From Nitrospiraceae bacterium (lineage in GTDB: Bacteria; Nitrospirota; Nitrospiria; Nitrospirales; Nitrospiraceae), in the NCBI GenBank assembly GCA_039920585.1, contig JBDSDL010000084.1, positions 184 through 64,183 of the forward strand: 64,000 nucleotides of DNA, written 5' to 3'. The notes beneath the pieces are model-generated. The model was not told the origin of the DNA and did not search any database. It saw nothing but the letters and a program-made list of their open reading frames with translations. Position numbers and translations under genes: made by a program. Position 1 is the stretch's first letter. Every line of letters begins with the position of its first letter. Shown here piece after piece: positions 7,044 to 63,988 of this stretch.

Positions 7044-8012
7044 ATGAACAAGAAACGTCATCATTACATCCCGAAATCCTATCTGAAATTCTTCTGTGAC
7101 GAGGCAGGGCAAGTTCGTGTCTATCGTAAGGATGACCCGGGCAAAGTAATTCAGCTGTCGCCGGACAACGTAGGCTTTCACAAGTACTACTACTCTCAGC
7201 CGAGACCTGATGGTGGGAAAGACCACAATGCTCTCGAGGATTGCTTTTCAAGTATGGAAGCTAAGTGGCCGGGGATCGTAGAGCGACTTCATCGCCGAGA
7301 GAACGTCAATGATTCTCTTGAAGAGATCTTTCAATTCATGGCATTGCAGCGGGCGCGCGTCCCCGCCAGTCGCGATGTAACAGAGAGGATACATGCGGAA
7401 GGTGTAATGGCTACGGCTCGGCAGTTGGATGCGGAAGGGAAACTATCCACGAAGCCTGAGGGCGTAGAAGACATTCTTGACCATGTTGAAGTGTCGATCA
7501 ATCCCCACCAATCCATTCACGCCATGGTTACCGTGATGCAAGCCACTGGGCAGGTGTTCGATCAGATTGGCTTCTATGCGACGCATAACAAGACCGATGT
7601 TCCATTTTTGACCAGTGATAATCCGGTAATCTGGTTCGACCCTTCTGTTCAGGATACTGATCTGCGGCCATATGTTCTTCAGCCTGATGGGCCGGTTGTC
7701 TTGCTCTTTCCGGTTAGTCCGTCACTCCTTATCTATGGGCACTCGTCATGGCGGGACCGGTTTGTGTCAGAGGGGTTGGGAATAGCGGATTTGTCGGACA
7801 CTGGTTTAGTCGAGATGATTAATCGGCAAGTCTGTCGTTTTGGGTCCCAGGCCATCTTTGCGCAAAAGCAAGGACAGGAACGACTTATAGGTGAACACGC
7901 CGAGTTGTCGCCAACCATACGTTTCGACAGAATTGCGGTAGGAGAAGATGAGTCTATCGTCTTTGAGCTGGTTTTCGGAAAGCGAGAACGCAAGCCAAAG
8001 TGGGTGGAATAA
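7044..8012 (+). CDS. DUF4238-like protein of unknown function (accessory insertion in his operon)
   Basis: 322 aa. N-terminal HHYIPKSYLKFF and internal FLTSDNPV match my recollection of the DUF4238 family signature. Hand counts of sampled stretches give roughly 45% GC versus about 60% in a hisB sample. Confidence 0.75.
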   Translation: MNKKRHHYIPKSYLKFFCDEAGQVRVYRKDDPGKVIQLSPDNVGFHKYYYSQPRPDGGKDHNALEDCFSSMEAKWPGIVERLHRRENVNDSLEEIFQFMALQRARVPASRDVTERIHAEGVMATARQLDAEGKLSTKPEGVEDILDHVEVSINPHQSIHAMVTVMQATGQVFDQIGFYATHNKTDVPFLTSDNPVIWFDPSVQDTDLRPYVLQPDGPVVLLFPVSPSLLIYGHSSWRDRFVSEGLGIADLSDTGLVEMINRQVCRFGSQAIFAQKQGQERLIGEHAELSPTIRFDRIAVGEDESIVFELVFGKRERKPKWVE

Positions 8013-8253
8013 CCGGAGTCGCCAGCATTAGTTCGTGAGTGGCCCGATATATTGATTAGGCTTTGAGCTATACCTGAAACCTTCCACGTCTGCCTGCTCA
8101 TTTTTCGTTATAGCCGAATGGACTCAAGCGTCATTCTAAGTTTTAGGCCCTCGCAGTTCTTCTTGTTCAGTTTGGCAGTGGCAGGAAGGCGTTGGTTGCG
8201 GTATTGTACCCGCCTACGGTCAAACTGTGGAACGGTAGGAGTGGGCAACGGTA

Positions 8254-8422
8254 GGATGCTCAAAAAGGCCGTTCAGCAAGGCCGCAGGCGAGTCGAAACC
8301 GGAGGCGTACCCTCAGGGGTACGTTGAGGATTTCGATGAGCCGAGAACGATGCATGGGAAAAGGCGCGTCTCGGCGCGCCTGGGTTGGGCGGGTGAGAAG
8401 GGCGACTTTTTCAGCATCCTGC
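8254..8422 (-). repeat. Long-stem palindromic intergenic repeat, copy A (long variant, core inverted relative to the other copies)
   Basis: Left part is the reverse complement of copy B from arm through core (GGATGCTCAAAAAGGCCGTTCAGC AAGGCCGCAGGCGAG...CGTACCC-TCAG-GGGTACG...GAGAACGA). Right end is TTTTTCAGCATCCTGC. It carries the 38-nt module at 8363-8400. Confidence 0.85.
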
Positions 8423-12077: not shown

Positions 12078-12418
12078 GCGAGTGCATGTTTTGCAAAATC
12101 GTCGGGAGAACCATTCCGGCGGCGCTCATCTATGAAGACGATCTGTTCGTCGCGTTCGACGACATTAATCCTCAGGCGCCGACTCATACGCTTGTCATCC
12201 CTCGGAAACATGTGACTTCGATTGCCGAACTGCAAGGTTCGGATGTTGAGCTACTCGGACATTTGATGCTGGCCGGCAACAAGATTGCGAAATTGAAGGG
12301 GATTGCCGATACCGGGTACCGTTTTGTCGTCAATACCGGTGAGCACGGTGGCCAGAGCGTGTTTCACCTTCATCTCCATGTTTTGGGCGGACGACACATG
12401 GCCTGGCCTCCCGGCTAG
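12074..12418 (+). CDS. HIT family (histidine triad) protein
   Basis: ATG at 12074 gives MSECMFCKIVGRTIPA..., with the histidine triad HLHLHVLGG near the C-terminus. ATGA overlap with hisIE. Confidence 0.9.
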   Translation: MSECMFCKIVGRTIPAALIYEDDLFVAFDDINPQAPTHTLVIPRKHVTSIAELQGSDVELLGHLMLAGNKIAKLKGIADTGYRFVVNTGEHGGQSVFHLHLHVLGGRHMAWPPG

Positions 12419-12445
12419 CAGTCCGAACTTTTTGAGCCTCCTACG
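12418..12445 (+). repeat. Remnant (solo right arm) of the long-stem repeat family
   Basis: GCAG|TCCGAACTTTTTGAGCCTCCTACG matches copy C's right arm GTCTGGACTTTTTGAGCATCCTGCG at 22 of 25 positions by hand alignment. It starts in the TAG stop of the HIT gene. Confidence 0.5.
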
Positions 12446-12643
12446 AGGTCATGTCTCGTTGTCCCAGACATGTGGGCCAGTGGACTTTCGGCGGCCCGCC
12501 ATCGTTTTTCTGCAACTGGCTAGTGCCCTACCGCCACGTTGACAGATTTCTTTCCCGTCTGTTACCTTTACCGGTCCATTCTCGACCACTTACGTTTATC
12601 TTTCTCACCGGTGCCAGGTGGGGAAATAGGAGCCGCGACTCCC

Positions 12644-16401: not shown

Positions 16402-16478
16402 GGGCCCATAGCTCAGGTGGTTAGAGCGGCTGACTCATAATCAGCTGGTCCTAGGTTCAAGTCCTAGTGGGCCCACCA
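16402..16478 (+). tRNA. tRNA with CAT anticodon (elongator Met or lysidine-modified Ile2), CCA encoded
   Basis: Hand-folded cloverleaf: acceptor GGGCCCA/TGGGCCC, D arm GCTCAGGTGGTTAGAGC, anticodon stem-loop GCTGA-CTCATAA-TCAGC, T arm CTAGG-TTCAAGT-CCTAG, then A+CCA. Confidence 0.9.
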
Positions 16479-19019: not shown

Positions 19020-19444
19020 GGAGAAGACTGGGTGATCGCTCGTGGCGGTGATGCTGCGAGAGGAAAGTCCGGACTTCATGGGTAGGGCGCTGGGTAATTC
19101 CCAGGCGGAGCGATCCGACACCAGCACCACAGAGAACAAACCGCCGATGGCCAAGGCGATGAGACCTCAAATCTTGTCGTTGCGGATCAGGTAAGGGTGA
19201 AACGGTGGGGTAAGAGCCTACCGCGGTGGTGGTAACATCACTGGCAGGGTAAGCGTCGCCCGATGCAAGGCCAAATAGGGAGACACCTGCCGGTTTTCTT
19301 CGGAAAGTCGGCAACCGGCTGGCCCGGCCGAGGTCTCCGGGTAGGTCGCTTGAGGTTCGAGGTAACTCGAATCCTAGAGAAATGATCGCCCCCGTGTGGG
19401 AGCATATCCCAGGCGGGACAGAATCCGGCTTATCGGTCTTCTCC
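19020..19444 (+). ncRNA. rnpB: RNase P RNA (bacterial type A)
   Basis: Universally conserved GAGGAAAGTCCGGAC near the 5' end, GGTAAGGGTGAAA, and ACAGAATCCGGCTTATCG near the 3' end. P1 pairing is GGAGAAGAC (19020-19028) with GTCTTCTCC (19436-19444). Confidence 0.93.
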
Positions 19445-19693
19445 ACCGCGCTTTTTTATCGCTCGACGCAGTTCCTCTTCTGTCACACTCCCTGCGAAGT
19501 GTTCGATCTCGTCGAGCAAGACGATAGGAACCCTCGCCCCGTAGCGCTCTGCTAAAGAACTGTCACTGTCAACATCCACGATGTTTATTTCAATGTGCAG
19601 TTCTGGCTGAAGATGAGTTGCAATTCGGTAGATGACATCGCATAGATGGCAACCTTCACGAGACAAAATGGTTACGCGGATTGGCATGCTCAT
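19430..19693 (-). CDS. Glutaredoxin-like thioredoxin-fold protein (CxxC)
   Basis: MSMPIRVTILSREGCHLCD... with a CHLC redox motif, small size, and VPIVLLD typical of glutaredoxin-like proteins. Start is uncertain (19693, 19687 or 19738). The 3' end overlaps the rnpB 3' end by about 15 nt on the opposite strand. Confidence 0.6.
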   Translation of the reverse strand: MSMPIRVTILSREGCHLCDVIYRIATHLQPELHIEINIVDVDSDSSLAERYGARVPIVLLDEIEHFAGSVTEEELRRAIKKRGGEDR

Positions 19694-24033: not shown

Positions 24034-24836
24034 AACCCATGGGACTTCGGCAATCATTCGGGAAGGATGGGAAGCGGCGTAAAGCCGCCATGCACTTGAT
24101 CCCGAATCTTTTTACGACGGGGAATCTACTGTGTGGCGTGTTTTCGATGCTGTCCGTGTTCAATGCAGACTACATGGTTGCCGCGGTCGCCATCCTGGTG
24201 GCGATGGTCTTCGACATACTCGATGGAAAGTCCGCGCGGTTGACGAACAGTACTAGCCATTTTGGATTTGAATACGACTCGTTGTCCGATGTGGTGTCGT
24301 TCGGAGTTGCTCCGGGCCTCTTGATTTATTCCTGGGCACTGAGCGGACAGGGCATGTTCGGTATGGCGGTGATGTTCGCTTACGTGGCGATGGGTGCGGT
24401 TCGGTTAGCCAGGTTTAATTCGACGACGTCCGTGCCGGACGGCAAGTATTTTACCGGCTTAGCTATTCCTGCAGCGGCAGGGGTTGTGGCGTCGCTTGTA
24501 ATTTTCGACCACTATAGCGTCAGGATTGGAACGGAAGTGAAACCCCTCCTTGTCCTGATTATTACGCTGACCCTTTCGTTCTTGATGGTGAGCACCATCA
24601 AGTATCGGAGCTTTAAAGACATGAAGTTCCGCGGTGGTCAGCACATTACGTATCTCGTCTGGGGAATTTTGGCGCTCATGCTCGTCGCCGCCTGGCCCCA
24701 AGTTATGCTATTTGTCATCTTTGCCGGGTACGCCTTGCTCGGCCCGGCAGAACGGCTTATCGGATTTTTGTCCAAGGTGGCAGGGAAGCGCCCATCGCCT
24801 AAGACCGAGCAGTCGGTGACGGAATCGAAATTCTAA
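24030..24836 (+). CDS. pssA: CDP-diacylglycerol--serine O-phosphatidyltransferase
   Basis: CDP-alcohol phosphatidyltransferase motif DILDGKSARL...G...DSLSD. Multi-TM. ATGA overlap with psd. Confidence 0.88.
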   Translation: MKPMGLRQSFGKDGKRRKAAMHLIPNLFTTGNLLCGVFSMLSVFNADYMVAAVAILVAMVFDILDGKSARLTNSTSHFGFEYDSLSDVVSFGVAPGLLIYSWALSGQGMFGMAVMFAYVAMGAVRLARFNSTTSVPDGKYFTGLAIPAAAGVVASLVIFDHYSVRIGTEVKPLLVLIITLTLSFLMVSTIKYRSFKDMKFRGGQHITYLVWGILALMLVAAWPQVMLFVIFAGYALLGPAERLIGFLSKVAGKRPSPKTEQSVTESKF

Positions 24837-24903
24837 TAGACTGTTGAAACACTATTTCGGCATGCAAGGACGAAGCTAGTAGACGTTTGAGTATTTTGCT
24901 AAT

Positions 24904-25159
24904 GGCTGCGACGAGGAGTAGTAGACGATACGCACAGCAGCGAGAGAGCTGGTGAATGGTGCAAACCAGCCTGTGCGGCGCCGAACTCGCCTCTGAGCCA
25001 GAATCCGTGAACCTCGAGTAATGGATTCCGCCTCGCCCCCGTGACAGGGCGTAATGAAGGGCTGCGAGCATCGTACGTTGCTCATGGCTAAATCAGGGTG
25101 GTACCACGGAGCTTCTCAAAGCCTCCGTCCCTGGGCGTAGGGATGGAGGCTTTTGTTTT
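24904..25159 (+). promoter_or_regulatory. T-box riboswitch leader, Leu (CUC) specifier, upstream of leuA
   Basis: Stem I base and GA motif GGCTGCGACGAGGAGTAGTA (24904-24923). AGCGAGAGAG and GGTGCAAA distal motifs. Specifier loop GAA-CTC-G (CTC = 24986-24988). T-box sequence AATCAGGGTGGTACCACGG (25091-25109). Terminator GCCTCCGTCCCT/AGGGATGGAGGC followed by TTTTGTTTT. Confidence 0.85.
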
Positions 25160-25162
25160 GTC

Positions 25163-25283
25163 GGCTGCTGAAAGCGGTTGCCAGCTTCGCTCTCGGCTCG
25201 AAAACATCCTAAACGTACCCTGAGGGGACGCTTGCGGTGTTTTACTCGCTTATGGCCTTGCTGGACAACCGCTTTGAGCAGCC
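25163..25283 (+). repeat. Long-stem palindromic intergenic repeat, copy E (short variant, most diverged)
   Basis: Arms GGCTGCTGAAAGCGGTTGCCAGC and GCTGGACAACCGCTTTGAGCAGCC. Core ...CTCGGCTCGAAAACATCCTAAACGTACCCTGAGGGGACGC...CTCGCTTATGGCCTTGC aligns to the other copies. Confidence 0.8.
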
Positions 25284-25311
25284 TCAATGCAATAGGGAGA
25301 AGGAGGAAGTC

Positions 25312-32128: not shown

Positions 32129-33147
32129 TGCAGCTCTCAGAATTCGACTTCCCGTTCGACCCCTCGCTGATTGCCACTCACCCAACCCTCCCGCGCGATC
32201 ACGCTAGGCTGCTCGTTCTGCAGCGTGTCGACCGCTCGCTCGCTCATCGCCGCGTCGACGAGTTACCCGATCTTCTTCAGCCAGGCGATCTCTTTGTGGT
32301 CAACGACACAAAGGTATTGGCCGCGCGCGTAGCTGGATTAAGGCGTCCTTCCGGCGCGGAAGTCGAGATCCTCTTTGTGAAGGATCTCGGCGATGCGATA
32401 TGGGAAGTGTTGATCAAGGGAACGTTTCGTCCTGGACAACTTATTGAGATGCGTCCAGAGGCTGTTGCTGTGGTGGTTGAGCGTGGCGCGACCAGAACGA
32501 CGGTTCGGGTCGAGAGTCCGATTCCGTTGTCTGAATGGTTGCGGCAACATGGTCGAATGCCGCTCCCCCCCTACATGAAACGGGCACCTACTGACCAGGA
32601 TCGCGAATGGTACCAGACCCTGTTCGCGCAGCATGAGGGCGCAATTGCGGCACCGACCGCCGGGCTCCATTTCACACCGAAGCTGCTGGCACGGCTGCAA
32701 CAGCGAGGGATAGGTCTTACGACTGTCACGCTCCATGTTGGCGTTGGAACCTTCAAACCGGTGACGGTCGATCGGATCGAAGACCATCGGATGGGCGCAG
32801 AATGGATTGAGGTCGGAGCAGAGGCGGTGCGTGCCATCAAGCAGGTGCGAGCAACAGGGAAACGAATTGTCGCTGTCGGGACCACCGTCGTGCGCGCACT
32901 CGAAACTGCAGCTTGCGCGGACGGCCAGATTCGGCCCTATCGTGGAGAGACAGATATGTTTATGACACCAGGGTTTCCGTTCAAGGTAGTCAATGCCCTC
33001 CTCACGAATTTTCACTTGCCACGTACCACGTTGTTGATGCTGGTCTCCGCATTGGCCGGGACAGAATGTCTTCGACAGGCCTATGCAGAAGCGGTTCGCG
33101 AACGGTACCGTTTCTATAGTTATGGCGATGCGATGTTGATTCTTTAG
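32128..33147 (+). CDS. queA: S-adenosylmethionine:tRNA ribosyltransferase-isomerase
   Basis: 339 aa, MQLSEFDFPFDPSLIA..., GAIAAPTAGLHFT, and a C-terminal YRFYSYGDAMLIL. Confidence 0.95.
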   Translation: MQLSEFDFPFDPSLIATHPTLPRDHARLLVLQRVDRSLAHRRVDELPDLLQPGDLFVVNDTKVLAARVAGLRRPSGAEVEILFVKDLGDAIWEVLIKGTFRPGQLIEMRPEAVAVVVERGATRTTVRVESPIPLSEWLRQHGRMPLPPYMKRAPTDQDREWYQTLFAQHEGAIAAPTAGLHFTPKLLARLQQRGIGLTTVTLHVGVGTFKPVTVDRIEDHRMGAEWIEVGAEAVRAIKQVRATGKRIVAVGTTVVRALETAACADGQIRPYRGETDMFMTPGFPFKVVNALLTNFHLPRTTLLMLVSALAGTECLRQAYAEAVRERYRFYSYGDAMLIL

Positions 33148-33273
33148 CATGATGCTCAAAAAGGCCGCCAGCTGCGTTCTCGCATCGTTCAGATCCTCAA
33201 CGTACCCCAGAGGGTACGCCTCCGGGTCTTCACTCGCTGCGGCCTTGCTGGACGGCCTTTTTGAGCATCCTGC
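33147..33273 (+). repeat. Long-stem palindromic intergenic repeat, copy B (short variant, reference copy)
   Basis: Arms GATGCTCAAAAAGGCCGCCAGC and GCTGGACGGCCTTTTTGAGCATC (22 bp, one bulge). Apical hairpin CGTACCC-CAGA-GGGTACG. The first base is the G of the queA TAG stop. Confidence 0.9.
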
Positions 33274-33372
33274 AGCTATTTTTTTCGGGAAATTCTGTCA
33301 GATCCCAACGATGTATTGTGCATAAACTGAGGTTTTCCGCAGACTGCTGACAGAGTCTGAAAGTCATTTGTC

Positions 33373-33425
33373 CTTCAAGTCCGAAAGCTCGGACTGAAGA
33401 TCGCCTGAGACTTTCGGACTTGAAG
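33373..33425. terminator. Perfect 15-bp inverted repeat between convergent queA and the PpiD-like gene (bidirectional terminator candidate)
   Basis: CTTCAAGTCCGAAAG (33373-33387) and CTTTCGGACTTGAAG (33411-33425) with a 23-nt loop. Confidence 0.45.
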
Positions 33426-33449
33426 ACTTGATGACTTCTAGTAGAGGTA

Positions 33450-34148
33450 CTAGAGCAACTCTCGGTTGATCTTGATGGGGATGGCTGTTTTGAGCGACTC
33501 AGTGTAGGCCATCAGTGCGCGTTGTTGTTTTTGGAAGAGGACGTCCTGCACGGCTCGGTCCTTCCCTGCTGCGGCCTTTGCCGGGTCTGATTCCGTTTGC
33601 CGTAGCGTAAGAGCTTGCGCCTCGGCAAGCTCGGCAGGGGTGAGGGCCACGGCGTCGCGGATGATCATCTTGGCTTTATTGCTCAGTACTTCTTTCGCTT
33701 CCATTGCTTCGAATATCGCGGGTGTCAGATGATTCGCTGCCAGGAGTCGTTGGTAGACCTCCGGATCGAACGTGCCGTTTTTTTGAAAGTCCGGGATCCG
33801 CATGATGACTTCACGCAGATCGGCGTCAGCCACGGTGAGACCCATGTTTTTTGCCGCAATAAGCCAGGTCCTATTGTCAATGAGTTGATCCACTACTAAT
33901 TGCTTGATCGTTTCGTCTTTGAATTCTCCGGGGACTTTGTCCTTATAGAATCGATAAGTGTTCTCATAGGCGCGTCGGAACTCATCGCGGGACACGGTGA
34001 GATCTCCGACTGAGGCGACGACGGTGCCGGTTTGTTCGTCGAAACCCCACCAGCCCATGGTGATGACGAAGGCGAGGGCGATGATCCCCATGATGGACTT
34101 GAGAAGCCACGGATAGCTATGCGACGCTTCACGCATCAATTTGAGCAT
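33450..34148 (-). CDS. PpiD/SurA-N-like periplasmic chaperone domain protein, no parvulin domain visible
   Basis: 232 aa, N-terminal TM anchor, then VASVGDLTVSRDEFRRAYENTYRFYKDK..., which resembles PpiD N-terminal regions. Confidence 0.6.
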   Translation of the reverse strand: MLKLMREASHSYPWLLKSIMGIIALAFVITMGWWGFDEQTGTVVASVGDLTVSRDEFRRAYENTYRFYKDKVPGEFKDETIKQLVVDQLIDNRTWLIAAKNMGLTVADADLREVIMRIPDFQKNGTFDPEVYQRLLAANHLTPAIFEAMEAKEVLSNKAKMIIRDAVALTPAELAEAQALTLRQTESDPAKAAAGKDRAVQDVLFQKQQRALMAYTESLKTAIPIKINRELL

Positions 34149-40498: not shown

Positions 40499-42034
40499 AT
40501 GGAAGGAGTGGGTATGGGAGTAGAAATTGCGATTACAGTCGCACGCGAGGAAACTCGTGTCGCAGTGTTGGACGGCGGAGTCGTCACGGATCTCTTTGGG
40601 GATCGTGCGAAGCACAAGGACTTTGTCGGGAACATTTATAAAGGAAAAGTAGCGAAAGTATTGCCTGGCATGCAGGCGGCATTTGTGGATATCGGCCTCG
40701 CGAAGGCAGCCTTCATGCATGTGTCTGATTTGTCGTTGGATTCCGAGCCAGGCGACACGCTTGTGGATGCGGTTGAGGACGACAAGGAAGCCGACAAGGA
40801 TGGGGATATGCTGAGCCCTCGGCGCCAAAGCTCCAAGCCGATCGAGCAGTTGCTGAGTGAGGGGCAGGAGCTGATGGTGCAGATTTCCAAAGGGCCTATC
40901 GGCACGAAAGGCTCGCGGGTCACGACCTATGTGTCGCTCCCTGGCCGGTATCTCGTGTTCATGCCCAATGTGGAACATATCGGTGTGTCCCGCCGCATTG
41001 CCCGAGACGAGGAACGGGCTCGACTCAAGGACATTATGAAGCGGGTGCGGCAACCAGGCTGCGGGTACATCGTCCGCACGGTGAGCGAAGGGGTCAAAGA
41101 AGACGAGCTGCGATCCGACGTCGATTTTTTACATGTGCTCTGGCAAGACATTTTGGCGAAGCGAGAACAGAAGGGGGCGCCGGCATTGCTCCACGCCGAT
41201 CTGAGCCTGAGCTTTCGTGTTGTGCGCGATCTTTTCGGAAAGAAAGTCGATCGGTTATGGATCGACTCGCGTGAGGAGTACCAGGCGGTCCGAGATTTCG
41301 TGCAGCGATTTTCTCCGGAGCAAACGTCACGCATTCATTTGTACGATAAAGATGAAAGTCTCTTCGATCATCTGGGGGTCGAGCAGGAGATGGCGCGGGC
41401 TCTCAGTCGCAAAGTCTGGCTCAAGTCCGGTGGGCATCTCGTCATCGATCATACGGAAGCGATGACCGTCATCGACGTCAACACCGGACGGTTCGTGGGA
41501 AAGCGCGATCAGGAGGAGACCATTCTCAGGAACAATCTGGAGGCGGCAAAAGAAGTGGCGTATCAGATGAAGCTGCGCGGGATCGGCGGCATCATCATCG
41601 TTGACTTTATCGACATGGAGAGAGAGAAGAATCGTGACAAGGTGTATCACGCGTTACTCGACGCGATGTCAACCGACAAGGCCCGCACCAGAGTGTCCAG
41701 AATCTCTGACTTAGGGCTGATCGAGATCTCTCGTGAGCGGGTAAGGGAGGATCTCCTCCGTTCACTGTCCGAGCCCTGTCACTATTGCGAAGGGCGGGGC
41801 TATACGAAATCTCCAACCACAGTAGTCTATGAGATATTCCGCGATGTCCGCCGGATCGGCAGCAGTCCTGAGATGCAGCGAATCGTCATCGGCGCTCACC
41901 CCTCGGTTGTCGGACTGCTCCAAGATGAGGAGCGCCAAGGTCTGGAGGCCGTGGAGCGCGAGTGTGCCGCGAAAATCATTGTCATGCCGGATGAGCAGTT
42001 GCATCTGGAGCAGTACGACCTCGCGGTTCTCTAG
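40499..42034 (+). CDS. rng: Ribonuclease G (RNase E/G family)
   Basis: S1 domain GNIYKGKVAKVLPGMQAAFVDIG, VIDVNTGRFVG, and Zn-link CHYCEGRG. ATG 40514 is the alternative start. Confidence 0.93.
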   Translation: MEGVGMGVEIAITVAREETRVAVLDGGVVTDLFGDRAKHKDFVGNIYKGKVAKVLPGMQAAFVDIGLAKAAFMHVSDLSLDSEPGDTLVDAVEDDKEADKDGDMLSPRRQSSKPIEQLLSEGQELMVQISKGPIGTKGSRVTTYVSLPGRYLVFMPNVEHIGVSRRIARDEERARLKDIMKRVRQPGCGYIVRTVSEGVKEDELRSDVDFLHVLWQDILAKREQKGAPALLHADLSLSFRVVRDLFGKKVDRLWIDSREEYQAVRDFVQRFSPEQTSRIHLYDKDESLFDHLGVEQEMARALSRKVWLKSGGHLVIDHTEAMTVIDVNTGRFVGKRDQEETILRNNLEAAKEVAYQMKLRGIGGIIIVDFIDMEREKNRDKVYHALLDAMSTDKARTRVSRISDLGLIEISRERVREDLLRSLSEPCHYCEGRGYTKSPTTVVYEIFRDVRRIGSSPEMQRIVIGAHPSVVGLLQDEERQGLEAVERECAAKIIVMPDEQLHLEQYDLAVL

Positions 42035-42202
42035 CAGGATGCTAAAAAAGCCCACCAGCGGCGTTCTCGCATCGCTCAGACGCTCAACGTACCGAAGCGT
42101 ACGCCTCGCCTCTTCGCTCGCTGCGGCCTTGCCCGCGGAACGGCGCGTCTTGACGCGCCGGGGTTGGGCGGGTGAGAAGTCTGGACTTTTTGAGCATCCT
42201 GC
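42034..42202 (+). repeat. Long-stem palindromic intergenic repeat, copy C (long variant with 38-nt module)
   Basis: GCAGGATGCTAAAAAAGCCCACCAGC...CTCAACGTACCGAAGCGTACGCCTCG...CTCGCTGCGGCCTTGC, the module at 42142-42179, then GTCTGGACTTTTTGAGCATCCTGC. The first base is the G of the rng TAG stop. Confidence 0.88.
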
Positions 42203-42381
42203 GCGAGGTTTGTCTGTTGTCCTAGATGTGCGGGCCATTGAATTTCCACCGTGCCACAATAGTTTTTTCGCAGCCTGCTAAAGATTGTGGCTCTCATGCG
42301 ACAAGACGTATGCAATCGTTCAGCAAGTCTGTAGGTGTGGATTCCTCTGCTGAGGTCGCGGATCCTGCCTCCGTTCAACCC

Positions 42382-62965: not shown

Positions 62966-63862
62966 ATGACACCTCGGACAAACCGTCTGGCCTATGGAGC
63001 GATTATCGCTGCCGCTGTGTTTTGGGGTGGATCAATCGTGGCCCAGAAGCTGGCCTTGAGCGGATTCTCAGCCGTTGAGGCGTCGGTCCTGCGGGACATC
63101 GGCGGGTTGGCGATTCTCCTGAGCATCTGGTGGTGGCAGGAAGGCACCTTGGTCAAGCTGTCCAAGGCGGATGTGCGTCTGTTGGGACTGCTCGGGCTCG
63201 GTGTGTTGGGCAACCACCTGCTCATTATGATGGGGCTCAAGTATGTGAGCGGGGCTGTGGGTGGGGTGATCATCGGATCGAGTCCGGTGGTGACTGCGCT
63301 GCTCTCGGCGCTGTTGATTCAGGATGTTCCGCTGCGCGCTGTGTGGGCGGGCGGTCTCCTGTCATTTGCAGGGGTGGGGCTGGTCTCCGTGGCGGGGTTT
63401 CAGGCCGCGGGCGATCAGCCCTTGCTCGGCAGCCTACTGGTCTTTGGCGGCGTGGTGAGCTGGGCTCTCTACAGTATCGGCAGCCGGAAGCTCATGGAGC
63501 GCCACTCGGCTCTCACCGTCAATTGGACGACATTGCTTGTCGCCACCGTCCTTCAAGTTCCCCTCTTGTGGATGGATCGCAAGATGCTGGATGCGGGACT
63601 CGGGTCCGTGTCGCTGGCGGATTGGATGGCGCTGGGGTATCTGGTCCTGTTCGCTACGGCGATCGCACAACAGGCCTGGTTGTATGGTGTGAAAGGTATT
63701 GGGCCTTCGCGCGCCTCTGTCTTTGGCAATCTGACTCCTGTGGCCGCCATCGTCCTGTCTGCGGTGCTGTTGAACGAATCAGTGGGTATGAGTGAAATCA
63801 TCGGCATTGCACTGATCTTGGCCGGAGTGTGGGTGGTAGATCGGCAAACCTCCCGTCTTTAG
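62966..63862 (+). CDS. DMT superfamily (EamA-like) transporter
   Basis: About 10 TM segments in two EamA-like halves. ATG 62966 chosen because the upstream 35 codons are low-complexity R/S-rich. Confidence 0.8.
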   Translation: MTPRTNRLAYGAIIAAAVFWGGSIVAQKLALSGFSAVEASVLRDIGGLAILLSIWWWQEGTLVKLSKADVRLLGLLGLGVLGNHLLIMMGLKYVSGAVGGVIIGSSPVVTALLSALLIQDVPLRAVWAGGLLSFAGVGLVSVAGFQAAGDQPLLGSLLVFGGVVSWALYSIGSRKLMERHSALTVNWTTLLVATVLQVPLLWMDRKMLDAGLGSVSLADWMALGYLVLFATAIAQQAWLYGVKGIGPSRASVFGNLTPVAAIVLSAVLLNESVGMSEIIGIALILAGVWVVDRQTSRL

Positions 63863-63988
63863 CAGACTGCTGAAAAATCCCGCCAGCGGCGTTCTCCCCT
63901 CGAAAGCATCCTCAACGTAGCCCAGAGGCTACGCCTCCGGTGCTTTCATCGGCTGCGGCCTTGCTGGCGGGATTTTTGAGCAGTCTGC
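63862..63988 (+). repeat. Long-stem palindromic intergenic repeat, copy D (short variant)
   Basis: Arms GCAGACTGCTGAAAAATCCCGCCAGC and GCTGGCGGGATTTTTGAGCAGTCTGC (25 of 26 paired). Apical hairpin CGTAGCC-CAGA-GGCTACG. The first base is the G of the EamA TAG stop. Confidence 0.9.

Follow-up and report, generated by a model that had tools for sequence, protein, structure and literature searches.

What are the long palindromic repeats that recur between the genes of a 64,000-nucleotide stretch of DNA from a Nitrospiraceae bacterium (assembly GCA_039920585.1, contig JBDSDL010000084.1, positions 184 to 64,183)? An earlier note on this stretch, here called the window, had described five copies and a remnant of a palindrome with compensatory substitutions, and had likened them to ERIC/Correia-type elements or to a structured RNA. 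Our analysis indicates that they are probably a family of non-autonomous DNA transposons (MITEs, small transposable elements with inverted repeats) of Nitrospira, with a target choice like that of IS5. No published description of the family was found in the literature on Nitrospira MITEs, repetitive extragenic palindromic (REP) sequences, IS5 or intergenic repeats; as far as the searchable literature shows it is previously undescribed, while the kind of element is already familiar.

All five copies (A to E, Table 1) are present at the places given earlier, with boundaries shifted by 1-3 nt, and the remnant is accompanied by another one, so that the window holds five copies and two remnants in 64 kb. 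A 25-base core pattern has four matches in the window and none in 100 dinucleotide-preserving shuffles, which confirms that the repeats are real and exceed chance. The palindrome itself had been outlined correctly; the whole element had not, since in copies B and C it continues to the right for about another 80 nt.

A complete unit of about 200 nt consists of arm1, a core, arm2 (together the palindrome described before) and a 76-nt second module ending in arm3. The left terminal arm, arm1, starts with CAGGATGCTGAAAAAG, and the core that follows is conserved and asymmetric, with an apical hairpin. Arm2 is an internal, inverted copy of the arm, which forms with arm1 a palindrome of 122-126 nt. 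The second module, of which there are two types (X and Y), follows arm2 in about one third of the copies and is almost never seen without a preceding arm2. It ends in arm3 (...TTTTTCCGCAGCCTG or ...GTTTTTCCGCAGCCTG), an inverted and slightly different copy of arm1, next to which the tetranucleotide YTAR is found. The element thus has terminal inverted repeats: arm1 (CAGGATGCTGAAAAAG) and the reverse complement of arm3 (CAGGCTGCGGAAAAAC) match at 13 of 16 positions.

Scanning one genome per prokaryotic species with the core pattern yielded at least 119 stretches, and no match was found in viral contigs. Among the core-pattern matches listed, nearly all record titles name Nitrospira, Nitrospiraceae or Nitrospirota, and three bins are labelled otherwise. 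Proteins flanking the repeats in the window were compared with those of metagenome-assembled Nitrospiraceae genomes (RNase G 98% and DnaG about 90% identical). The family was sampled from the window and 119 loci, in which a profile search found 188 non-overlapping matches, 101 of them full length and mostly 122-126 nt long between CAGG and CCTG.

Evidence for transposition comes from the flanks. In 15 of the 28 long forms the 4-mer to the left of arm1 is identical to the 4-mer to the right of arm3, and in 5 more the two differ by one base; when the flanking 4-mers were re-paired at random (10,000 permutations), the mean number of identical pairs was 4.9 and the maximum 12. The duplications include CTAG, CTAA, TTAA and TTAG. 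Non-palindromic direct matches (CTAA/CTAA three times, TTAG/TTAG, CTAC/CTAC and TTCG/TTCG) rule out that the flanking YTAR is a mere extension of the inverted repeats. To the right of arm2, the left 4-mer reappears solely at offsets 75-79.

Orthologous sites without the element agree with this picture. Contigs of relatives (L120 and others; L numbers denote the loci compared) were obtained through RNase G and DnaG homologues, and flank-anchored comparisons and closer relatives were used instead of MAFFT pairwise alignments of filled and empty sites, which are unreliable among distant species. In the rng-dprA spacer, L120 (98% RNase G identity) is empty and reads ...GTGCTT TAA AGATTGTGA (CTT TAA AGATTG; also given as CTT TAA AGATTGTG), while the window reads ...GTTCTC TAG, then a 247-nt element, then CTAA AGATTGTGG (AGATTG): there is one YTAA when the site is empty and two YTAR when it is filled. 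The spacer between the HIT-family gene and dnaG has a single TTAG in L125 and L126, the element flanked by CTAG on both sides in the window, and another family member at the same TTAG in L124. At queA, the empty site of L120 (...CTC TGA CAGAGTCTG) corresponds in the window to ...CTT TAG, the element and CTGA CAGAGTCTG; the right-hand CTGA equals the empty site of L120, and the stop codon of queA is TAG when the site is filled and TGA when it is empty.

Presence or absence at orthologous sites varies. The sites of B and C are empty in L120, L121 and L123, and that of C also in L122, where the B site is not covered. Copy A has a filled counterpart in L125, with module X and arm3 retained, and its site is empty in L124 and L126, where the native ribosome-binding site of hisH is intact. 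Copy E has its filled orthologue in L030, while L046 is empty at this site (CTAG), and further, more distant pairs of filled and empty sites occur among the 119 loci. Terminal inverted repeats, a 4-bp duplication, small size (about 200 nt), lack of a coding signature, many copies (101 full ones in the sample) and insertion polymorphism together correspond to the definition of a MITE.

The duplicated tetranucleotide points to the kind of transposase that we infer to have moved these elements, a DDE enzyme choosing its targets as IS5 does, since IS5 duplicates YTAR (PMC5009759). The arms CAGGCTGTTGAAAAA and CAGGCTGCGGAAAAA also resemble by eye the published ends of the IS5-family elements ISPg4 (GAGACTGTTGCA) and ISNme1 (GAGACCTTTGCAAAA; PMC4596501), a likeness that is a lead rather than a test.

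YTAR targeting would also leave a trace in the position of the copies relative to genes. Of 96 copies, 46 have TAG, 19 TAA and a single one TGA immediately 5' of arm1. With the base before it this triplet forms YTAR in 57 of the copies, and the remaining triplets mostly depart from TAG or TAA by a single substitution. In 46 copies the left triplet is exactly where a long open reading frame (ORF) terminates, and with a greedy gene call no nucleotide (0 nt) separates the element from an upstream co-oriented gene in 36 of 55 cases. In the window, the genes whose stop codon lies at the left end of an element are queA and those of RNase G, an EamA transporter and a HIT-family protein; all four proteins match Pfam profiles to their ends, so the genes abutting the element are not truncated. 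Genes in these genomes end most often in TGA (348 TGA, 271 TAG, 241 TAA), which is nearly absent to the left of arm1; this shows a preference for YTAR and not for stop codons as such. Either strand of any YTAR includes a TAG or TAA, and selection removes insertions within genes, so that abutment to stop codons follows. About 22% of the non-coding YTAR in the loci lie at stop codons (239 vs 864), whereas about half of the elements abut one, so that an additional enrichment of about 2.5-fold is needed; it could come from selection against insertions in promoters and leaders. A TGA inside arm1 (GCTGAAAAA), at offset +8 from the start of the element, closes a frame of 80 codons or more in 11 copies; such frames may be spurious, or may be genes that have had their last codons replaced by the element.

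Many copies depart from the complete form: 68 of the 96 have no recognisable third arm and no duplication, and a duplication directly after arm2, or at another offset, was sought in these short forms and not found. Many of them retain the first 10-30 nt of module X or Y. Since orthologous copies differ in the presence of the second module (L053 and L117; L125 and copy A of the window), we read the short forms, by comparison of the sequences, as probably truncated long forms.

The life of the family might then be pictured as follows. A transposase supplied in trans would cut YTAR with a 4-bp stagger; insertions within genes would be lost, and the survivors would lie mostly on stop codons, with one copy of the duplicated stop in use. 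The right-hand module would later decay or be deleted, while the hairpin would persist with its pairing kept, giving short palindromes such as A, D and E. When transcribed, the hairpin, with its GC-rich stem and A5/U5 flanks, would fold into a 3' structure of great stability that resembles an intrinsic terminator working in both directions, or else a 3' stabiliser, and this could account for the preferential retention of sense copies behind genes.

The covariation that had been noticed in the window is a property of the whole family. Ninety copies were aligned and their pairs scored against the fold of copy B: paired cells make up 85.4% (78.6% in shuffles, 34-42% with slid partners), double-sided changes occur in 33 of 44 pairs (19.6 in shuffles, 14-20 with slid partners), and there are 231 double-change cells (75 and 34-76, respectively). 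Covariation affects 20 of the 25 pairs of the outer helix, as in CAGGCTGC/GCAGCCTG, CAGAATGC/GCATTCTG, CCGGATGC/GCATCCGG and CGGGATCGTG/GACGATCCCG. The complementary arms reported before (AAGGCCG/CGGCCTT, AATCCCG/CGGGATT and AGCGGTTG/CAACCGCT), the apical stems (CGTACCC/GGGTACG vs CGTAGCC/GGCTACG) and the variants of the inner helix are all in the sequence, and each of these patterns holds in the alignment. The same is true of the arm position said to be mismatched, which is G.G in 83 of the 90 copies; a second mismatched position is usually T.C. Unpaired stretches of the core (CGTTCTCG, CCTCAACGTA, TACGCCTC and CTGCGGCCTTGCTGG) are nearly invariant across subfamilies and species. Copy B folds with an energy of -70.7 kcal/mol (z = -7.7), and its complement with -72.9 kcal/mol (z = -7.4). 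The outer helix has no excess of G:U, the wobble signature of a sense-strand RNA (G:U 29, A:C 84), and the pairing constraint is therefore not assignable to sense RNA.

The reason why the hairpin has been retained is the least certain part of our interpretation. The data are compatible with three explanations: a hairpin under selection, be it as RNA or as DNA; switching of the template from one arm of the long DNA palindrome to the other, by which a change is copied without selection; and inheritance from several master copies. The fixed G.G mismatch argues against blind homogenisation. At this position there is a G in arm1 and in the reverse complement of arm3, i.e. at the true ends, and a C in the reverse complement of arm2; one may speculate that the internal arm, owing to the mismatch, does not serve as an end, which would explain why the palindrome alone seemingly does not transpose.

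The orientation of the copies also bears on this question. The bias towards the direction of flanking transcription, seen earlier in four of five copies, extends to the sample (in tandem gene contexts, 36 copies are sense and 15 antisense) and suggests a longer retention of sense copies. It is absent from the long forms (7 sense vs 9 antisense; stop-abutting ends 11 left vs 6 right) and marked in the short ones (28 vs 6; 24 vs 2). Part of it can be neutral, because deletion of the right part is free where intergenic DNA follows and constrained where the stop codon of a gene does. At orthologous sites the hairpin module is 87-95% identical (73% in one old pair), coding flanks are 83-91% and distal intergenic flanks about 75-77% identical, values that indicate moderate constraint or conversion. 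The GC-rich inner stem with its A5 and U5 flanks resembles a bidirectional intrinsic terminator, and canonical terminators are in use by this organism, judging from the T-box leader at 24899-25135. A simple terminator and promoter scan of copies B and C made no calls, its loop limit of 3-8 nt making it uninformative for this hairpin. It is possible that the hairpin has been adopted as an RNA-level element, e.g. a terminator or 3' stabiliser.

Several observations weigh against the MITE interpretation and should be set beside it. As the earlier note had stated, no transposase is found in the window: none with matching ends was seen among the 30 window proteins scanned, nor near arms in about 0.8 Mb of loci. 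A search for a parent insertion sequence among inverted arm pairs 0.3-3 kb apart, adjoining ORFs and lone copies of the second module met ordinary genes only. About two thirds of the copies (the 68 of 96 given above) have neither second module nor duplication, and their origin by truncation is deduced from orthologous pairs. At the rng site, a duplication of 2 bp (TA), the terminal repeats then each being longer by one base, gives a slightly better fit than one of 4 bp. The left TTAG of copy B differs at three of four positions from the CTGA of the empty site and of its own right flank; possible causes of this discrepancy are that the stop codon changed later or that another copy converted it. 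A plain DDE-type MITE needs no hairpin, yet arm1 and arm2 covary, the G.G mismatch is kept and the unpaired motifs are nearly invariant. Finally, the sense bias of the short forms points to a constraint beyond selfish transposition.

The hairpin could also be more than cargo of the transposon, namely a domesticated nucleic-acid element with a defined partner, which we regard as a tentative and rather unlikely proposal. It might be a Nitrospira-wide 3'-end RNA module, which could act as a bidirectional terminator, an mRNA stabiliser or an RNase E/G processing site, or else a strand-specific protein-binding hairpin. The unpaired motifs and the fixed G.G could then be recognition features, and the transposon the vehicle that places the module behind stop codons.

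Somewhat less probable still is that the module is primarily a host-functional structured RNA, either a cis-acting 3'-end element or a protein-binding RNA, that is merely spread or carried by transposons. Strong covariation in four helices, the near-invariant unpaired motifs in all subfamilies and species, the folding energy of copy B, the sense bias both overall and among short forms, the persistence of the hairpin part beyond the rest of the element and its identity at orthologous sites relative to distal intergenic flanks all speak for such an RNA; yet the opposite strand folds equally well, G:U pairs are fewer than A:C in the sense strand of the outer helix, and template switching in long DNA palindromes can also yield covariation. 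Copies are moreover found in antisense, upstream of a start codon (A), in a T-box-regulated 5' untranslated region (E) and between convergent genes (B), close relatives do without them with no visible compensation, and wholly different cores occur between the same arms. There is no match in Rfam, even at E up to 10. Thus, of the two comparisons in the earlier note, the one with mobile repeats is upheld in its MITE-like part by the 4-bp duplication, inverted arms, presence/absence and non-coding nature of the elements, while the one with a structured RNA is not borne out, in view of the Rfam result, the lack of G:U excess, the occurrence in both orientations and varied contexts, and the exchangeable cores.

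A known RNA family was rejected as an identity of the repeats: the scan of the window at Rfam gathering thresholds found RNase P and one tRNA only, and a permissive scan of 33100-33460 (E up to 10) nothing relevant. Integron attC sites were likewise rejected. The ends are CAGG...CCTG and not R''/R' sites (RYYYAAC...GTTRRRY), the copies are dispersed among the housekeeping genes queA, rng, hisH, leuA and dnaG, and no integrase is present among the 30 proteins scanned.

Mobilisation as single-stranded DNA deserves a separate comment, as a link to RAYT, IS200 or TnpB had been proposed. The element would then be a REPIN-like doublet, inserted 3' of a tetranucleotide without duplication by a RAYT or an IS200/IS605-type Y1 transposase. 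The short forms, in which YTAR is conserved just at the left end and is not duplicated, fit such a scheme, as do the long imperfect hairpin with a conserved mismatch that distinguishes its strands and the extragenic, orientation-biased location. Complete elements, however, carry a statistically solid direct 4-bp duplication with which the empty sites agree, single arms are not themselves palindromic REP units, and the cleavage-type asymmetry of IS200/IS605 ends, with a subterminal hairpin at either end, is missing; no Y1 transposase was seen in the window or the sampled loci. We therefore do not favour the link and consider this mechanism improbable.

It is highly improbable that the repeats are genes for a small protein, namely the 42-70-aa 'hypothetical proteins' of the annotations, which start with MLKKSASGVL, in spite of an ATG in arm1, a 65-codon frame that reaches a stop in the right-hand duplication in many long forms and 870 predicted protein clusters: the differences in length between elements are not multiples of three, the apical loop of one subfamily contains an in-frame TGA, just 42 of the 69 ATG-bearing copies have the frame open, both strands have further frames that are open equally often, variation by codon position (0.34/0.19/0.33) has no third-position excess, and the C-terminal halves derived from modules X and Y are unrelated, so that a protein-coding reading was rejected.

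The closest parallels to the Nitrospira MITE are MITEs derived from IS5-family insertion sequences, such as the Porphyromonas gingivalis MITEPgRS/BrickBuilt and the neisserial ATR element, which is linked to ISNme1. The present family is like them short, non-coding, multi-copy and intergenic, with terminal inverted repeats and modular, mosaic and nested variants, and its 4-bp YTAR duplication is that documented for IS5 (PMC5009759). Unlike them, the Nitrospira family has no known parent insertion sequence, and its third, internal copy of the terminal repeat creates a covarying 125-nt hairpin; its core has been strongly conserved from species to species, over half of its members lie exactly against a stop codon, and it is apparently restricted to Nitrospira. 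The Correia elements (CREE/NEMIS) of Neisseria are similar in having a size of 100-200 nt, terminal inverted repeats of about 26 nt, a long RNA hairpin and many gene-adjacent copies, which are often co-transcribed and are known or suspected to serve as terminators, promoters or processing sites. They differ in their TA duplication, IHF site, unrelated sequence and host, whereas the Nitrospira element has the 4-bp YTAR duplication, three arms with a second module and a host in another phylum.

ERIC/IRU of enterobacteria and SPRITE of Streptococcus pneumoniae, the latter a terminator-like repeat (Minnick review, PMC10969869), are imperfect palindromes as well, about 100-130 nt long and located in intergenic DNA that is transcribed, with the GC stem and U run of a terminator-like plan; they have no sequence relation to the present family, no reported YTAR duplication or abutment to stops, and other hosts. 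REP/BIME and REPIN-RAYT systems have in common with it extragenic palindromes at gene 3' ends, a hairpin doublet, a conserved mismatch and mosaics of motifs and linkers. REP units are nevertheless palindromes of 20-40 nt with a 5' GTAG-type motif and no duplication, whereas single arms of the Nitrospira element are not self-complementary (only arm1 and arm2 pair) and its complete units are flanked by duplications.

The family is mosaic in its core as well. The same arms enclose other cores in L096, L039 and L033, and some copies have insertions in the apical loop; this mosaicism suggests either repeated insertion at 'safe' YTAR sites or exchange of segments by recombination through the arms. 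L007 (1091-1223) and L033 (3621-3724) represent an orthologous site with the same boundaries and arms and an unrelated core (AGCAAGAAGATCATTATTTGG...), and another core type (TTTCGGAAGGTTAAG...CTCAGGTTGAGGCTGAG...) lies between the same arms in L096 (7728-7873) and L039. At L087 (308-708) there are three tandem partial core matches (profile positions about 31-119), spaced about 140-170 nt apart and without full arms.

Table 1. Family members in the window (positions counted from its first nucleotide).
Feature	Position	Strand	Composition	Basis or context
Copy A	8252..8421	-	hairpin module arm1-core-arm2, core inverted	upstream of hisH
Remnant 1	12415..12523	+	CTAG 12415-12418, core-deleted element 12419-12519 (arm2 remnant, module X, arm3), CTAG 12520-12523	
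Remnant 2	24833..24879	-	element part 24837-24875	module X profile positions 43-81, E 8.5e-4; weak, by eye
Copy E	~25160..25286	+	most diverged hairpin module, without second module	between T-box leader terminator and leuA start (25313)
Copy B	33144..33350	+	complete long form: TTAG 33144-33147, hairpin 33148-33272, module Y and arm3 33273-33346, CTGA 33347-33350	
Copy C	42031..42281	+	complete long form: CTAG 42031-42034, hairpin 42035-42201, module X and arm3 42202-42277, CTAA 42278-42281	
Copy D	63859..63987	+	TTAG 63859-63862 (EamA transporter gene stop), hairpin module 63863-63987	any part further right lost at the window end

The stop codons of queA and of the RNase G gene are contained in the left 4-mers of copies B and C, respectively, and that of the HIT-family gene in the left CTAG of remnant 1, in which both ends and the CTAG/CTAG duplication are intact. 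Remnant 2 consists of CTAA (the stop of a CDP-alcohol phosphatidyltransferase gene), the arm-like TAGACTGTTGAAACAC with about 25 nt of the end of module X, and CTAG. Copy A, which has neither second module nor duplication, ends 12 nt upstream of the hisH ATG (8434) and carries beside arm1 an extra hairpin-bearing insert of about 45 nt (~8350-8400, + strand); copy C has an insert of about 45 nt beside arm2, within its hairpin module. This sub-module (a GGCGCGTCTYGRCGCGCC hairpin followed by GGGTTGGGCGGGTGAGAAG) occurs beside one arm in copies A (8350-8400) and C (42130-42179) and in L007, L031, L064, L082, L085 and L124; its orientation matches that of the adjoining arm, and it may be a nested small repeat.

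The surroundings of some copies are of interest in themselves. The T-box leader upstream of leuA (24899-25135, + strand; RF00230 at 82.2 bits and E 2.3e-18, which falls short of the gathering score, 93, and so escapes a default scan) has a canonical terminator that ends near 25160, and copy E sits after it, inside the regulated leader. A separate inverted repeat with 27-nt arms at 33361-33437, between queA and a convergent gene with a SurA_N domain, lies outside the family; it is kept in L120, which is without the transposon, and resembles an ordinary bidirectional terminator-like hairpin. Near copy A, a DUF4238 gene (7044-8012) lies between hisB and hisH in this genome only. At the same spot L124 has no extra gene, L126 a different one without a Pfam match, and L125 others, including a HepT-like toxin gene, which makes it a variable site within the histidine operon. 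The RNase P RNA (class A, 19020-19448, 290 bits) and the tRNA gene at 16402-16475 are ordinary features unrelated to the repeats.

The family has also left its mark on protein databases, which confirms the remark of the earlier note that similar sequences are mis-annotated as small hypothetical proteins. The peptide read from the arm1 ATG matches 870 clusters of a public protein collection, all of 42-70 residues, all named 'hypothetical protein' and none with a Pfam domain; many are exactly 65 aa long because the frame runs from this ATG to the stop in the right-hand target duplication. Three of the clusters bear the name of an organism, in each case Nitrospira (two 'Nitrospira sp.' from NCBI and one 'Nitrospira sp. 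SG-bin2').

In soils, waters and treatment plants, the main nitrite oxidisers and complete ammonia oxidisers belong to Nitrospira, the genomes of which are known mostly from metagenome bins. A high-copy, genus-restricted mobile element residing on stop codons affects assembly breakpoints in such genomes and creates hundreds of false 'hypothetical protein' entries, and it also provides a marker for insertion polymorphism at the level of strains. It has placed a very stable hairpin at the 3' ends of many housekeeping transcripts, in the T-box-regulated leader of leuA and just upstream of the start of hisH. The family is a clean example of how selection channels a YTAR-targeting transposon onto stop codons, and of how one module of an element outlives the rest. 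Any effect on RNA we infer from structure and position; if it is true that the host uses the hairpin as a terminator or stabiliser, this would be a regulatory structure spread by a transposon.

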